Positions 3,809 through 15,160 of a stretch of DNA of 64,000 nt are shown piece by piece. A program made the translations under genes and the position numbers. This DNA is from Patellaria atrata CBS 101060. Its lineage: Eukaryota. Within the stretch, counting starts at the first letter, position 1. The number at the start of each line of letters is the position of its first letter. Under the pieces are notes generated by a model, which was not told the DNA's origin, made no database searches, and worked only from the letters and a program-made list of their open reading frames with translations. Location of the stretch: the NCBI GenBank assembly GCA_010093705.1, contig MU006089.1:1971561-2035560 (forward strand), written 5' to 3'.

Positions 3809-4815
3809 TCAGAGCTCCGCTGCAATGCCAGGCTCGTCGCACACAAAGGGTGTTGCGCCTGAGTCGGCGTGCAATTCGAAGAACTTTCCACCAAACCCGT
3901 CAACGAAGTTCGCTGAAGCTGAAAAAGTGTTGCAAGACGTATTAGCGTCGAGGGAAGAGGAGAAGAAGGAGTCCTGCTGTTGTTCCAGGAGGGAAGTGTC
4001 GCTGTCCACGAGCGAAGTAAGGTCGAAGAAATCGCCGAATAAATTGTCGTTAGCGACAGCTGGATGTTGAAGAGTAAGAGAAGGGCAATCATCGAATTGC
4101 ATGCACTTCGTGTCTGGAGTACCGAAGTCGAGGCTGAGAGGTGTTTGGGCGAATCCGACTGACACTGCAGGTCGCACAACATTGCTGCAGAATGTTGTGT
4201 CCGGTCGGATTCACTCATCATCAGCTCGCCGGTCGGTGTGGATGGTTGACTGATTGTGTCGAATGGAGAGTCCATGCTGTCGAGAGTCATAGATTCCGGG
4301 CTAGGAAAAGACGTCTGACGTGGGTTCACGGTGTCGTCCGATGGGTGTGCTGATTGTAGATGTGATGGGTTGTTTAGAAAGTTTGGGATTTTAGAGAAAA
4401 GTTCTTCGACAGTGTTGAGGTCAACAGGTGTTTGACCTTCAAGTGGTGCTCCAGTTTCTCTATACGATCGGAGTTCAGCTGTCATCAACTTCACATGATC
4501 CCTAATATTTTGTAGACGCATTTCGAGTTCGTCTTTCTCTGCCTGAAGGTGTTCCACTTCTTGGCGCTTGCGCTCCCTTGAGTTATGGGCTGCAAGTCTG
4601 TTACGCTTGACACGTTCGATGCGCCGTTGTTCCTTCTCATCGGCAGTCTTGGCCCGTTTCCTTGGGGGAAGGTTGGTCTTGGGTTCTGGGAGTACTTGAC
4701 CCCATGACTTTCTCTTCTTTGCGGGCTTTGCCTCTGTGGCGGGGGGTGTGGCAGACAGAGAGTCTGGCGACTGCTGGAAATTTTCCATTTTAATGGTGGT
4801 TGGTTGTTCGGCCAT
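3809..4815 (-). CDS. hacA: UPR bZIP transcription factor HacA/Hac1, induced (spliced) form; the unspliced frame runs on to 3544
   Basis: KKRKSWGQVLPEPKTNLPPRKRAKT..EKEQRRIERVKRNRLAAHNSRERKR bZIP and QHSAAMLCDLQC intron-spanning signature. Removing 4168-4187 gives ..QHSAVSVGFAQTP..GIAAEL*. Start placed at MAEQP (4815); in-frame ATGs also occur at 4923 and 4962. Confidence 0.95.
4168..4187 (-). other. 20-nt unconventional (Ire1-cleaved) intron of hacA within a bifurcated stem-loop (4151-4212)
   Basis: Two CTG^CAG sites lie 20 nt apart. The 5' site is in a 7-nt loop closed by CACAACATT/AATGTTGTG, the 3' site in a 7-nt loop closed by GAC/GTC, and the basal stem is GAATCCGAC/GTCGGATTC. Confidence 0.95.
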
Positions 4816-7600: not shown

Positions 7601-10600
7601 TCACAAACCCCCCAAATCCTGCCCCGCCCTCGCCAACGCCTCAAACACCCTCGGCGGGAGCTTATACCTCACCAACCCGACAAAAACCATCAAATCCCTC
7701 GCCTTGCCCAAAAGCTCATCCGCCAGCGCCCGTCTGGATGGGACATCCTCCCACCCTCCCTCGCCTAGCAACTCTTCCCTCCTGCGCCCGCAACACGCGA
7801 TGGCCCACATGAGCAAATTGCCCACATTGCGCGCGACGACGGGCTGGAGGGCGTTAAAATTCTGCGCGTGCGCCCGGATCTGCGGGATCGAGCCCCTCGC
7901 TGTCAGCGGGAGGAGCTCAAGCTTGGTGATGAGGTCGACGGCCTCGATCCACTTGTGCTGCGCCACGAGGGCGCGGGCGCGCGACATGTCGAGGAGGACG
8001 CCGCAGGCTGCGCGGTTCGCGGTCGAGATGCGGGAGAAGTATCCGGCGTCGCGGTCGTAGAAGGATATCATGTTTTTGGCGAGGATGACGGGGTCGTCGA
8101 CGGCGGTGAGGGAAAGGCTGTAGTCTGCTTGTTTTGTCTGCTGGGCTGAAGCCGTGGTGCGTGGTTTGAGGGGCTCGAGGCGGATGTGGTCTTCGCCGAG
8201 GTCGAGGGAGAGGGCGTCGGAGAGGGAGCGGTTGATGATGCTGACGACGTTGTCGTATTCGCCTGCGAGGTGGTAGAGGAGGACTGCGTCTGTAATGCGG
8301 CCGCTGTCGTCGGCTACCGAGGCCGCATTGATGGTAATGCTCTTGAGGAAGTCGTCTTGGTCGGATAGGCCGAGCAGCTTGAGCCGTTGCTCGATTGCGC
8401 CTTTGATACGTTGCCCGTTGATGCCGAGATCGCCAAGTAATAGGGCGAACTCGCGCGTTTCGAGGACTAGCTCTCGCAGAGCTGCGTGGCAGAGATCAAC
8501 TTGGAGGCGACCGGCTTCCCCTCGCAGATCGGCATTGAGACAGATGAGAGTGAGATAGTCGGTGGCAGCTTCGGCCTTGGCCGTGCGGAAGTCTCTGGTG
8601 TAGACACCTAGCATGCGGCCAAAGTTGAGTTGTGGCTGCTGCTTCGTAGTAAATGTCACTAGACGGAAAGTCAGTCGTATATTTCTGATAAGCTCCGGAG
8701 CCAACTTACGCAATTCAGACTCCGACACCGTCCAGTTAGAGACGCGCAGCAAGCCATAGAACGTCAGTCCAATGGCAAAATGCACAGCAGCAACATAATT
8801 GTGTGGATACAGATACGCAACTGCCTGTTCAAACATGCCACACAAGATCTGTAGGTAAAAGTAAACACTGTAGCCACCAGCTTCTTGGTCATTTCCAGGC
8901 GCAAAATGTCTCGCACCGATTTCTTTGATATCGGAGCGAAGATCCTCGAGACCGAAAAAATCTCCTGCCGCTTCTTCGACACGACTCACTTCTCGCGCAA
9001 GGGCGAACTGAAGCCACAACCAATCATCTAAGCCCTGGTTGATGCCTTCAAGGCTCCGTTTTCCAAGATCACATCGACCGATGATCTTGTAGCAAGCTTG
9101 ACGGTAAGGATCAATATTCTGTTCCGCGTTCTTCGCCTGCGATTGATATTCGTTCTCAATCTTACGCTGCGTGGCTGATTCTATCCGGCCATCGGTACTC
9201 TTGTAGAATGCCAAGAGGTAATTATAGAAATTCCTCGAGAGCGATTTAAATGCCCGCTCATTATCTTTCACATATTGAACGGCTTCGAGCACGAGCCCGC
9301 AGCGAAGGAGATAAAAGACAAGCACCCAACAGTAGTCATCCTCGATCTTTTGGAGTTTTTCCACGTCGCTCCCCAGCTCTTTGCGTGCTGCTCGAAGACG
9401 GACATATGCCTTAATCCTATGGGTATCTGTGGGAACGCCACCTAATTTTGCTTCTTCTCGCGATTTCAAGATTGTTTCTCTAACTCTGTTGAAGAATTGT
9501 TTCTCGAGGAACCTTCGTGATCCATTGAGAATACGTTTGCGAATGGAGATGCTCCTTGCTGAATTAGGAGATTCATCCAGATACTCATCAAAGTATTGTC
9601 GTTCCCTGATAGCCCCAGGATCGGACGGTCGTTGTATGTCAGGATTCTCGCCAGTGATTTCGATCAGAGCTCTATACGCATCATCCAATTTCGCAACGTT
9701 CTAATCACAAGTCAGTGAACTGATGGAGGAAAAATAACTGTGGTCATCACTTACATCCAAGCCCGGTTGAGATTCTGCCTCCGCAAATTGGGTCAAAAGG
9801 GGGAAAACTAAGTCCTGTAATCTATGCAGATTAAGCTCCTTGACCTTCTCAGCGTATTTTTCTTGCTTGTTTCTCTGGTGTGGATCTTCTCCAAAAGACT
9901 GGCCCTCAGAGCTCTTAGTTGACACATCTGTAAAAGATTTATTTCCGCGTGTGGACGCTCTTCCAACCGGACCTCCCAGAACAGAGCGTCCCAAAGATGC
10001 ACCAAAAGTACTCCCACTCATGCCTGAACTGCCTAGTGGGCGACCTCTACGAGATGACTTGCCGAAAGCTCCACGGTCATCCTCACCGATTCCGCTAATG
10101 CCGGCCCCAGAATAGTCCTCTGATTTGGCCAATCCGAAATGTTCGTAGATCCGTCGACGCTGGGCGTCCCATTCCATCTGAACGTTTTCCTCTAGAAACG
10201 CGTCAAAGTCCCGTTTAGATTGTTCAAGACCTTCAGCTATAAGATCTAAAGTGGATTGGGTTTGGAGGTTGGAGAGGTAGCCATCAATATCTGTGTCGAG
10301 GCCGGAAATCCCTGTAGGGACCGGAACATTTGTTTGCGCATTTAAATTGTTCAGGTCTCGAAGAGCAGCTCCTGTTTGCACACCGGATGCAGCAAGTAGA
10401 TAATGACTGTAAACTGTTAGCATCCATCATTACATCTCCATAAGAGCATACTCACGTCTTTACGTCTCCAGCACGTGCTTGTGAAGCTGAAGGACCTCCA
10501 GTGCCCAGGTTTCTGACTTTCCTGGCAATATCACCTAATCCTAACTGTAGAGTAGGAAGATCTCCCAGAAAACTTCCAGCATTCTCCTGGTTCTGTCTCT

Positions 10601-11420
10601 TCTTACTTCTCTCTAGAAGATGATCAAAGTACGAGGACGTTCCGGGAACGTTTTGTGCTTGGGTTCCGTCTTGTGCTTGTTGGGGCACTTGCTGCTGCTG
10701 CTGTTGTTGCTCCATTGGTCGTCCGATTCCACCCATACTTCCAAAGAGGGAATTGGAAGCCGCTGGTGCACTTGTGGCAGGGGCATTGTTGGTTCCTAAA
10801 CCTCCAAATAATGCTCCTGTAGATGCTGGTGTCTGTACAGTTGAAGCTCCTAGCCCACTGAATAATCCACCAGAAGCTGCTGGCTTTGGTTGACCCAAAC
10901 TTGGAAATAAATTTGAACCTTGTGCCGTCTGCTGTTGCTGAGGTTGCGATGTCCCTAGACCGCCAAAAAGGCTTCCACCTAGAGCGGGTTTCTGTTCCTG
11001 AGCTGGCGTCTGCGAAGTTCCCAGATTACTGAACGCGCCTCCACCCGTCGTTCCAGAATGTTGTTGTGGTTGAGATGTACCGAGATTACTGAATAAGCTT
11101 GATCCTGAACTGGCGCCTGTATTCTGCTGTGCTGCGCCGCCTAAATTGGAGAATAAGGTAGACGTTCCAGTCGATGGCTGCTGAGGTGCGGAGGAAGTCG
11201 CATTTCCCAGGTTCCCAAACGATCCCCCAAAACCCGATTGTTGCTGCTGTTGCCCACCTCCAAGACCCCCAAAACCAGAGTTTTGCTGCTGTGTACCGGT
11301 ATTTGCGGCCCCGAAAAGACCTCCTGTCGACTGTGCTGTGGTTGCTGGCGTACTCAGATTTCCGAACAGATTACCACCTGGCTTACTGGTACCGCCGCCA
11401 AGATTTCCAAACAGAGACAT
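7601..11420 (-). CDS. NIC96: Nucleoporin Nic96/Nup93 with FG-rich N-terminal extension
   Basis: Start MSLFGNLGGG at 11420; introns 10407-10455, 9701-9754 and 8659-8709 join three track ORFs. Motifs LPTLQLGLGDI, HYLLAASG, W..VFYLLRCG, DPY...CYKIIGRCD and DWLWLQ. Confidence 0.92.
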
Positions 11421-12158
11421 TGCGGGCGGCAGAAGAACAGAACTAGTAGTAACAAATGTTACGGAGCGACGGGCAGGCGGAGGTGTAAAAGATCCGTAGC
11501 TGGTGATGCTCGCGAACGCGCTGTTATGAATTTCTTTGGAGCTATTTCCCTTGTTCGTACAGTGAGCCGGGAAAACCTCGGCGTTGTCCTTCACAGGGCC
11601 GACCACAAACCTGCCGTCTGATACCAGATAACTTCAGAATGCCATAGTTACACTTTTCTCTGAGATCAAGTGTCATTAATGTGATACCGATGTCTAATTC
11701 AGTTTCTTTCCTGGACTAGACATCAACGTCAAGGGAGAATCTTCATCCCATGAACTCCTAATGCCCTTCTCATTCACTAATCTTTTAGCTCCTATTCATT
11801 TCCTCCCAGCTTCAATTACAATCAATCTCCTTTTAATTTAAAAATAGAGTCTGATAATAACTTCCATCGGTAAATTGTTACTTGACTTCATGTGAGCGTG
11901 GGTATACCACCTTGAAGATAGTCTAAACGTGGAAGAATACCAAACCTACGTAGTTAAGATAGTAGTAATAGTCTTCTATATAGATAGCTGGAACGATAGC
12001 ATGTGCTACAAGAGTCAAGATATCACCAGTAAAGGGGCAGAGCATAAACGTGACTCCATCACAAACAAGATATTTCGTCACAAGCATACATTACCTTTCC
12101 CAAATCAGTCACCTAGCCAGTTACTTTATTTATGAGCTCCGCAGAAGACATCTCTAAT

Positions 12159-12262
12159 TCCGCCGTGGTGTAGTTGGTTATTCCCTTTGTCAATTTCCTT
12201 CAGTCAATTTCGTATTTCCTTTAATCCACTGTTCGAGTCCCACCAACTACACTTCGGCGGAC
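12159..12262 (+). ncRNA. Putative Pol III-transcribed, tRNA-derived hairpin RNA (non-cloverleaf)
   Basis: tRNA-like 5' end TCCGCCG-TG-GTGTAGTTGGTTA (A box) and B box GTTCGAGTCC at 12231-12240. 12159-12178 pairs with 12242-12261. T-tracts follow at 12284-12342. Confidence 0.55.
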
Positions 12263-13400
12263 AAAGATAAATCCCCAGGGGGGTTTTCTTATCACTTATT
12301 CCTAATCGAGATAAGGGTTTTCTTTTGCCATTTTTCCTTTTTAATTATTGTTATTCTTGCTGAGGTTATAGAAAGGTGTAGGTAGTTACTTTTTTTTTTT
12401 TTTTAACTATCTATCTAACTTTGCTACTCGTAGACTTCAAATCTGATTATAAGGAACTTGGGACAACGTCATGTTGAAAAGGTACGTTATCAGAACAGCG
12501 TAAGCTGTCAAATTGTCAGAGGTTACATGGTTGACACTGCTGACGTTAATTGTCTTCTATACCAACAGTCACAATGTCCAATGTCCGATATCCAATCTCA
12601 ATGATCCTATCAATCAAAGGAAATCAGTTTCCCCAAAATCAAACTCAGTAAACATCAATCAGTCCCCCGCAAACTATGACACCCACAATTCTCTCAATCG
12701 ACCCCAGTATCTTTCCCCCAAGAAACACACTTGAGTCCGCTATATCCCCTTGCTCTGTCTACTCCAGTAACACCGTAATCAGCCATGCCAAAAAAGAAAC
12801 TCCCACACTTCAGCATCATTGGAATTCCGAGATCTTCACCCCCGAACGCAAGCTCCAAGACAAAGACAGGGTGCAGCAACGACAATGCTATGTCGATGAG
12901 ACCATACAGTCAACCCGGCGAATCTCTTCCCACAACCCATATCGAAGTCTCACCTGTATGGCGGAAGATGTCGCCATCCGAGAAATAGGTTCGCAGTTGT
13001 GGAAGAACTCAGCCTTCTGCAGCCAAACGTCTTGATCAGTTTTGAAAAGATAGAGGGTGCAGTGATGGGTTAGGTGAGATGATTTTTCATTCAGGTTCCT
13101 TTGAATTGTGATTCATCGAGTGTGGTGGAACTTCAGATGGATGTTAAGGAGGTAACATGTTCTCTCATCGAGGACAGGGTCATTACTTAAGGAAACCCTA
13201 AAAGGGAGACGAAGTCCAGAAAAGAATAGATTAATTGCTGCTTTAATAGAGCTCGTTGTCATTAAAACTCCATCATATTGAGCCTGTGGGTATCAATTTC
13301 ATTTACCTCCAATCCTCTCCTCCCACACCAATCCACCACCCCCAACCGACCCTATACCTCCTGCACCACTCCCGTTTCCCCAATATCCCTCTCCCGCGAT

Positions 13401-15160
13401 TTACCCTTCTTCTCTACAAGAAACAACCACTACAAAACCCGTTAGCCTCAACTTCATTCCGCACCAAGGAACCCAACTCACCATAACCCCAGCACTAAAC
13501 CCCGACACAACACCCAACGCCCACCCCATAGTCCCCCACCCCGCATGATCCCTAATCAACCCCGCAAAGACCGGTCCCACCGTCGTCCCCAGCGCAAAAC
13601 TCATCGAGAAGAACCCGTACGCCTGTGCATACGCGCCCTTTTCCCCCAACACGCCCGGCTCCTCCTCCTCCACGCTCTCGAGGAAGCGCGTTATGCCGAC
13701 CATGAGCGGCGGCACGACCGAAGAGATGGAGCCGCCGATGAGGAAGAGTAGCACGCAGAGGATCACGATTTGGGAGGGGGAGTTGTGAGTTACGAAGCGC
13801 AGGAGGATGAGGAAGGGGGCGCCGAGGGCGAAGCCGGCGGTGGCGAGGTAGCGCGGGCCGTGGCGATCGGTTAGGGCGCCTAAAGGGGGTGAGTCAAGGT
13901 TCAGGGTTAGAGTTGAGGGATTTGACTGGGAGAGGTTATCTGAGGGGAATGAGAAGAAACGGGGAAGAATACCGATATAGGGTTCCGCGATACCGGGGAT
14001 GACGATGGGGAGGAAGATTAGACCGGCGAGGGTGGGGCCCCAGTTGAAGGTTTCTTCGACGTGGAGGGGGAGGACGCCGTCGAGACTTGTTAGTAGGGAA
14101 CCTTGGATTAGGATGCCCCAGAGCGCGGCGAGAAGTCGAGTCGATCGGAGGAGTCGGAATGTTCGTTTTGCGAAGACCTTGATGTGCCCGACGGGTTTGG
14201 GTTTGGGTTCGTTGTTTGGACGTAGCTTGGGGATAGAGGTTCCTCGCTCTGTGGGATCTGGGATCTCCTTTTCCGATTCAAGGAAAATGGGTTGACTGGT
14301 CTGGTTAAGATGTCTCGCATCCCTCTTCTCGATAATCGACAGCCGCAAAGCAATATCGAGTGCTAGAAGCCCAAAGGCCATCCCAAACACAGCATAGTAA
14401 CCTTTCTGTGCATATACGATACCTCCCAGCAACGGCGCAATGAAAATACCGCCACTGATTCCGAGGGTAACGTAACCAGTCGCAAGTCCAATCCGTTCAG
14501 GACCTACGGTATCAACCAGTAGAGCGAGGCCGGATGACCATACAACAGCTGCAGCGATACCTTGGAAGACTCTGCCTAGTACGAGTAACCATATGGTTCG
14601 TGCTAGACAGAGCATCAGGGTAGAACCTATGAAAATCCCGAGGCCGACAAGCATGGTGATTTGTCGTGTCTTTAACACGTCGGCCAAGTAGCCGAAGATA
14701 GCTACAGAATTAGAGGGTTTCTGGCCATGGTTTGGAGATCAGAGTGGGCCACGTACGTGAAAAGAGAAACCATGATGCACCATAAACGGCTAGAAGAATG
14801 GATGACCATGTTTGAACTATCCGGTATGAGTAGGTCTCCATTCAGGGTAATATCGGACTACATACTATCGCTCTCATCGATACCTGCTCGATTGACGAGG
14901 GCAAAGGGCATTACGGGCACAAGCTTTCATTCTGAGCAAATGACTGGCACTAGCTGATATTTTAAAACATACCATGCCATATAAAAAAGTATCCTAAGCG
15001 TGTTACTTCCATATCCATATATCTTTTCGAACATAGAAAGGGTTCAATAGCATACAGTGAACAGCGCAACGCTGACGGTAGTGATGATATACCAATCTGC
15101 CGACCTGACATTGAGGAACACATGTTTCTGCTTCTTTTTCCATTCCGCTAGAATAGTCAT
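13401..15160 (-). CDS. MFS transporter (vesicular amine transporter/DHA1-like)
   Basis: Start MTILAEWKKK..RSADWYIITTVSVALFT; several short introns, including in-frame 13880-13972. Multiple TM helices with GRVFQG, LLVDTVG, DRHGPR and AYAQAYG motifs. Confidence 0.9.

Follow-up and report, generated by a model that had tools for sequence, protein, structure and literature searches.

The 64-kb window (by which we mean the whole stretch of DNA analysed) carries on its minus strand two open reading frames that belong to one nucleoporin. That at 7601-8836 encodes the Nic96 domain, and that at 10452-11420 encodes the FG-rich amino terminus of the same protein; the best named relative of the latter is a partial nuclear pore subunit of Cryomyces antarcticus (50% identity, 59% query coverage). 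An MFS transporter gene, likewise on the minus strand, ends near 13401. The spacer of about 2 kb that runs from the 3' end of the MFS gene to the start of NIC96 harbors a tRNA-like unit at 12159-12261 on the + strand. The unit lies 739 bp upstream of the NIC96 ATG and on the strand opposite to it, hence beside NIC96, as had been noted when it was first described.

An open reading frame at 12676-13035 (+) was considered as a gene and rejected, as it matches no Pfam family and has no homologue. Elsewhere in the window, positions 4147-4216 (-) match the Rfam model of the non-canonical bZIP Hac1/Xbp1 intron (RF04247) over its full length, with 50.5 bits (threshold 41) and E = 5.6e-07. Judging from this match, the region probably holds a gene for a HAC1-type unfolded-protein-response mRNA.

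Anatomy of the tRNA-like unit

Read directly on the + strand from 12159, the sequence begins with TCCGCCG, T, G, GTGT and AGTTGGTTA, which correspond, in this order, to the acceptor strand of a tRNA, positions 8 and 9, the 5' side of the D stem and the D loop. Three tRNA segments are retained in all: positions 1-21, which include the A box; the B box; and the 3' acceptor strand. Under the usual position names for conserved tRNA bases, the hallmarks present are a 7-bp acceptor stem paired at all seven positions, T8, A14, G18, G19 and the G53-C61 of the T loop. The acceptor start TCCG recalls tRNA-Glu or tRNA-Asp. The 14-mer of the D arm, GGTGTAGTTGGTTA, is found verbatim in a 5' fragment of tRNA-Val-CAC reported from wheat (PMC8722339). 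The coordinates of the features are given in Table 1.

Table 1. Features of the tRNA-like unit and its immediate surroundings (positions in the window)
Feature	Position	Strand	Remarks
Possible TATA-like element, T/A-rich TTTATTTAT	12125-12133	+	26-34 nt upstream of the unit; putative role
5' arm of the inverted repeat, tRNA positions 1-20	12159-12178	+	TCCGCCG, T8, G9, D stem GTGT, start of the D loop
A-box-like motif TGGTGTAGTTGG	12166-12177	+	Fits TRGYNNARNNGG with at most one mismatch
Stretch common to a second locus	12168-12207	+	D arm and 27 non-tRNA, pyrimidine-rich bases
Loop, 63 nt	12179-12241	+	46/63 pyrimidines (73%)
B-box-like motif TGTTCGAGTCC	12230-12240	+	10/11 against GGTTCRANNCC; no flanking T stem
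11-nt tract ACCAACTACAC	12242-12252	+	Perfect complement of 12168-12178; candidate template-switch product
Acceptor-like 3' strand CGGCGGA	12255-12261	+	Pairs 7/7 with 12159-12165
Small second hairpin	12264-12290	+	First T4 run (12284-12287) in its 3' strand
Oligo-T cluster	12318-12342	+	T4 at 12318-12321 and 12323-12326, T5 at 12331-12335 and 12338-12342; candidate Pol III terminators

Pol III genes with a type-2 promoter have an internal A box and B box of known consensus, set apart by a distance that varies within workable limits. The A-box-like and B-box-like motifs of the unit are 52 nt apart and oligo-T runs follow downstream, which amounts, at the level of pattern, to a type-2 layout. 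Only at 12159-12261 does the 64-kb window have an A-box-like motif upstream of a B-box-like one with both inside a tRNA-like unit; it contains no other box pair of such quality and no further copy of the unit. A string GTTCGAGTCCCACC begins at 12231, within the region of the B-box-like motif. The loop contains GTCAATTTC at 12189 and again at 12203, and a motif scan of the 64 kb did not find this string in the rest of the window. TRF detected no tandem array in the loop, two copies being too few. A scan for promoters and terminators of bacterial type returned nothing, although a scan of this kind does not apply to a fungus.

The original prediction had described a tRNA-like head with TCCGCCG, T8 and an A box, a B box or T-loop motif, a final CGGCGGA, a pyrimidine-rich loop with GTCAATTTC twice, and oligo-T tracts behind the unit. 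Each of these elements was read at the positions given above.

Search for a tRNA and for known RNA families

No tRNA gene was found by ARAGORN in the window, either with default settings or with introns allowed. When the thresholds were lowered, down to the lowest, no tRNA at the locus was among the matches listed. The Rfam tRNA model (RF00005) did not match 401 or 112 bases around the unit at its gathering score or at E<=10. The expectation that neither a cloverleaf nor a family would be recognized was thus borne out. Compared with a eukaryotic tRNA gene with its type-2 promoter, the unit has positions 1-21, the B box and the 3' acceptor strand in tRNA register, but is devoid of the 3' side of the D stem, the anticodon arm and the T stem. 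A spliceosomal intron was considered and rejected: the sole GT...AG near the D loop, at 12177-12203, is 27 nt long, and its excision leaves no cloverleaf.

A likeness to vault or Y RNAs had also been proposed. Rfam lends it no support, as neither family matched even at E<=10. The best Rfam match was a generic plant microRNA hairpin that scored 14.1 bits, compared with a gathering score of 101.7.

The terminal hairpin

The ends of the unit form an inverted repeat (12159-12178 and 12242-12261) of 20 nt, 90% complementary and 63 nt apart. Among the six inverted repeats of at least 16 nt that lie within 150 nt in the 64-kb window, it is the longest. Along the stem, seven Watson-Crick pairs are followed by a U-U, a G.U and eleven further Watson-Crick pairs. 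A repeat search and direct reading thus agree with the pairing originally given (18 Watson-Crick pairs, one G.U and one U-U), and the tract described there as an exact complement of the D arm and A box is indeed perfect. A stem of about 20 bp reaches the size expected of microRNA-like precursors.

When folded as RNA, the + strand (104 nt) reaches -34.4 kcal/mol with z = -6.7, a stability that 200 shuffled sequences never equalled; the hairpin is kept when 187 nt of context are folded. Folding is equally favorable for the minus strand (-38 kcal/mol, z -6.5), and therefore the folding energy does not indicate an RNA of one strand. The single G.U pair is present on the + strand only, which is the strand that carries the boxes, and may be regarded as a weak sign that constraint acts on the RNA.

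Exact 11-mer inverted repeats with a loop of up to 100 nt occur three times in the window, compared with a mean of 1.4 in 30 Markov simulations. An 11-mer inverted repeat is not rare by itself. What goes beyond chance is its position beside a 7-bp acceptor pairing, in a unit made of three tRNA segments.

A second locus in the same organism

Evidence on copy number came from two public runs (X1 and X2), which consist of DNA contigs from one sample at a depth of about 300-430x. Both are possibly the source of the assembly, and they do not count as independent support for the sequence of the window. A further locus is present in these contigs of the same organism, an observation that is new here. 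Its traits can be described as follows:

(i). In each run, one contig spans the region of the unit, and one more contig matches it over 12168-12207 alone, the 255 letters to either side being unlike. The likeness over the shared stretch falls in the 90-95% band, with one record per run. No other copy with at least 90% likeness was found, and none lies within the 64-kb window.

(ii). The letters that precede the shared part in the second locus end in TCCGCTATA; together with the GTGTAGTTGG... that follows, they make up a tRNA-like 5' end again, which differs from that of the unit at three positions. After 12207, the two loci diverge.

(iii). Read depth in the bin 12117-12417 was 336 vs 294 in X1 and 489 vs 429 in X2. 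This excess is about what one additional single-copy locus would contribute over 40 nt.

Since the shared stretch includes 27 bases that do not belong to a tRNA, the two loci descend from an ancestor that had already been gutted. Furthermore, the different flanks of the second locus make the unit a probable member of a low-copy repeat rather than a unique gene. Many dispersed copies with target-site duplications had been named as the finding that would identify the unit as a remnant of a mobile element. Part of this picture holds, as a second locus with other flanks exists; the remainder does not, as only one extra copy was seen and no duplications were found.

In the 30 letters that follow the shared stretch of the second locus, ten C are succeeded by AACCAAC, which is complementary to the D-loop GTTGGTT of that same locus. 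This hints that the second copy may also pair with its own head.

Search for relatives elsewhere

A metagenome scan for the inner arms of the stem separated by a 40-70-nt loop yielded 18 loci. The order of parts found in the unit (acceptor strand and A box, B box, 3' arm, acceptor strand) was seen in none of the 18. Half of them (9/18) are palindromes that continue for at least five bases inward past the 11-mers. Two of the 18, L006 and L015, with 73-74% G+C, have a B-box-like string, but directly after the 5' arm. We read the 18 loci as unrelated palindromes and discarded them as relatives; because the search pattern is its own reverse complement, matches to palindromes are favored. The metagenome locus L003 (1060-1133) is a palindrome of 58% G+C that combines the 11-mer arms with TCCGCCG and CGGCGGA in another order, and was taken as a coincidence.

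In the literature, no publication on such a unit was evident among the titles listed under tRNA-derived SINEs in Dothideomycetes or under tRNA-derived hairpins with internal promoters in Pezizomycotina, which does not prove that none exists.

Comparison with SINEs and MITEs

Like a SINE, the unit has a tRNA-related 5' head and a body unrelated to tRNA. A tRNA-derived SINE also has a tail that is A/T-rich or a simple repeat and a 3' end in common with a partner LINE; T-rich runs do occur downstream of the unit, of which they may or may not be part. Among described classes, AfuSINE2 of Aspergillus fumigatus comes closest. It comprises eight low-copy families related to tRNAs, 140-493 bp in length, whose A and B boxes are degenerate and which form no cloverleaf; five of the families are transcribed, and some are targets of RNA silencing (PMC5063351). 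The resemblance is considerable, as both are found in a filamentous ascomycete and in a gene-rich setting, and both combine a 5' tRNA-related head, A-box-like and B-box-like motifs, a body of other origin, low copy number and the absence of a cloverleaf (PMC5063351). Differences are also seen. AfuSINE2 elements carry target-site duplications of 4-14 bp, whereas none was found at the unit; the unit, unlike AfuSINE2, keeps the 3' acceptor strand; and closure of a hairpin by the acceptor stem and a complement of the D arm is a feature of the unit that the available part of the AfuSINE2 account does not describe (PMC5063351).

A search for target-site duplications longer than 5 nt around the unit gave none. 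The longest matches between its flanks were three 5-mers, and such matches are common by chance: of 300 random places, 79% had a 5-mer match and 36% a 6-mer match. The flanks that adjoin the ends, ...CTCTAAT and CAAAGAT..., show no duplication. As in a MITE, the ends are terminal inverted repeats (20 nt, 90%), but neither a target-site duplication nor copies with both ends in common were detected.

Origin of the stem

Altogether, we consider it somewhat probable that the unit is a degenerate tRNA-derived relic, either SINE-like or a pseudo-tRNA, whose closing hairpin arose from the acceptor stem and one templated mutation, and which may still be competent for transcription by Pol III. Under this interpretation, the unit (12159-12261, perhaps extending to the T runs that end at 12342) would belong, in this Dothideomycete-like fungus, to a low-copy set of tRNA-headed repeats of Pol III type; in the unit, the 3' side of the D stem, the anticodon arm, the variable loop and the T stem would have been replaced by a pyrimidine-rich stretch. 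The 20-bp stem would then be made of the inherited 7-bp acceptor stem and a perfect, inverted 11-nt copy of the D arm. Such a copy might have been produced in a single step, by a template switch within one strand that enlarged an inverted repeat already present, rather than by base-by-base selection.

The edges of the 11-nt tract are unpaired or mismatched, with U-U at 12166/12254, G.U at 12167/12253 and, at the other end, T/C at 12179/12241. If one tract was copied, a perfect stretch flanked by mismatches at either end is what one would expect. Template switching during replication has been put forward as a way for perfect RNA stems to arise in one step (PMC8794818) and as a force behind the expansion of inverted repeats in yeast, including those of promoters (PMC13100816; PMC8604942). 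The hairpins described in these reports and that of the unit have in common a perfect complementary tract, bounded by mismatches, beside a short inverted repeat that existed before; the published cases, however, made use of reconstructed ancestors, whereas the event proposed here is inferred from a single sequence (PMC8794818, PMC13100816, PMC8604942).

A consequence concerns the argument that had been made for selection, namely that decay of a tRNA cannot create complementarity to its own A box. Since a single template switch next to the acceptor pairing would suffice to make the tract, selection is not required to explain the complementarity to the A box, and the minus strand folds too. The original observation is confirmed, while its interpretation is supported only in part.

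Certain facts do count against reading the unit as a relic. Replacement has affected all that lies in between, whereas both boxes and the acceptor pairing are intact, as would be expected had purifying selection acted on a Pol III transcription unit whose ends pair. That no target-site duplication was found, that only one extra copy was seen, and that this copy departs after 12207, ahead of the B box and the 3' arm, also argue against it.

Alternative explanations

The unit might be a selected small-RNA gene, in which a former tRNA gene provides an internal Pol III promoter for a 103-nt hairpin RNA with a pyrimidine-rich loop. Such an RNA would act by itself, or would be a Dicer substrate that gives rise to small RNAs both identical and antisense to the tRNA 5' end. 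Intact box motifs at 52 nt from each other with T runs downstream would be expected of a gene of this kind, and so would a stem that begins exactly at tRNA position 1 and closes at position 72; the strength of the + strand fold, its stability in longer context and the strand-specific G.U pair point in the same direction. We nevertheless regard a selected gene as unlikely. A partial copy is present at a second locus, the fold of the minus strand is no worse, and the best that Rfam offers is the low-scoring generic hairpin. Moreover, the first T5 lies 70 nt past the stem, so that the hairpin would become terminal only after trimming.

Another view is that the DNA itself matters and that any RNA is a by-product: the unit would be a TFIIIC-binding relic similar to the ETC sites of budding yeast, which are bound by TFIIIC without the polymerase and have a boundary function (PMC3395662), and would serve as a chromatin boundary or positioning element upstream of NIC96. 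The B-box-like motif, which agrees with the consensus at 10 of 11 positions, and the location in the spacer between the 3' end of the MFS gene and the start of NIC96 are compatible with such a role, but the 11-nt inverted tract and the shared pyrimidine-rich stretch both go unexplained, and we deem this view very unlikely. Highly improbable, in turn, is that the unit is a MITE whose 20-nt terminal inverted repeats resemble a tRNA 5' end by chance. The inverted ends, a size of 103 nt and the existence of at least one further related locus would suit a MITE. The second locus, however, has only the inner 5' part and departs after 12207, which is not the pattern of a MITE copy; no target-site duplication flanks the ends; and neither the B box nor the exact tRNA register of both ends is accounted for.

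Possible transcription and precedents among small RNAs

Even as a degenerate relic, the unit may be transcribed. If the boxes are still recognized by TFIIIC, transcription by Pol III would begin near 12159 and terminate at the T4 of 12284-12287 or at the T5 runs within 12331-12342. The predicted RNA would measure about 125-185 nt, and its first 103 nt would fold into the hairpin. Because the two ends of the stem coincide with tRNA positions 1 and 72, trimming by RNase P and RNase Z is conceivable, as if the RNA were a minihelix, and the trimmed 20-bp stem might then enter the Dicer pathway.

Cleavage of mammalian pre-tRNA-Ile by Dicer takes place by way of a hairpin fold of the precursor. The product of Dicer cleavage of this pre-tRNA is miR-1983 (PMC6912820). 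In Neurospora, milR-4 derives from a Pol III transcript that also contains tRNA-Ala, and is freed by RNase Z (PMC3547838). As far as these reports go, the unit would share with both systems a Pol III promoter of tRNA type and a long-stem RNA able to feed Dicer, the latter being a prediction in the case of the unit (PMC3547838; PMC6912820). There are differences, however: the milR-4 hairpin adjoins intact tRNA-Ala genes, whereas the unit itself cannot form a tRNA (PMC3547838), and pre-tRNA-Ile comes from a real tRNA gene, whereas the unit is no tRNA and only a putative precursor (PMC6912820).

A bolder speculation is that dead tRNA genes have been turned into a lineage-specific class of structured Pol III RNAs, and that here one template switch made a hairpin gene with Dicer products identical and antisense to the tRNA 5' end. 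We consider this distinctly unlikely; if it were true, a fungal equivalent of the tRNA-derived microRNA precursors would have been caught here as it came into being.

Whether the locus is expressed or silent changes what can be learned from it. Expression would reveal how a tRNA gene can become the source of a Pol III hairpin RNA in few evolutionary steps: boxes and acceptor pairing persist, the middle disappears and a single templated mutation makes the stem; this would bear on the origin of the microRNA-like RNAs that fungi produce with Pol III. If the locus is silent, the tRNA-headed units of this genome would be more plausibly seen as SINE-like debris of low copy number, perhaps still able to bind TFIIIC, and the locus would call for caution: in a tRNA relic, a long, near-perfect stem is not by itself proof of selection.

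Sequences downstream of the unit

Two minor observations concern the DNA that follows the unit. The string GGGTTTTCTT is found at 12281-12290 and again at 12315-12324, and each copy follows a small hairpin (12264-12290 and about 12295-12315, respectively). Further downstream, GGTGTAGGTAGTTA at 12375-12388 matches the 14-mer of the A box and D arm at 12 of 14 positions, and is followed by a C at 12389 and by a T15 run at 12390-12404. This match may be due to chance or may represent another fragment of the same tRNA-type head.
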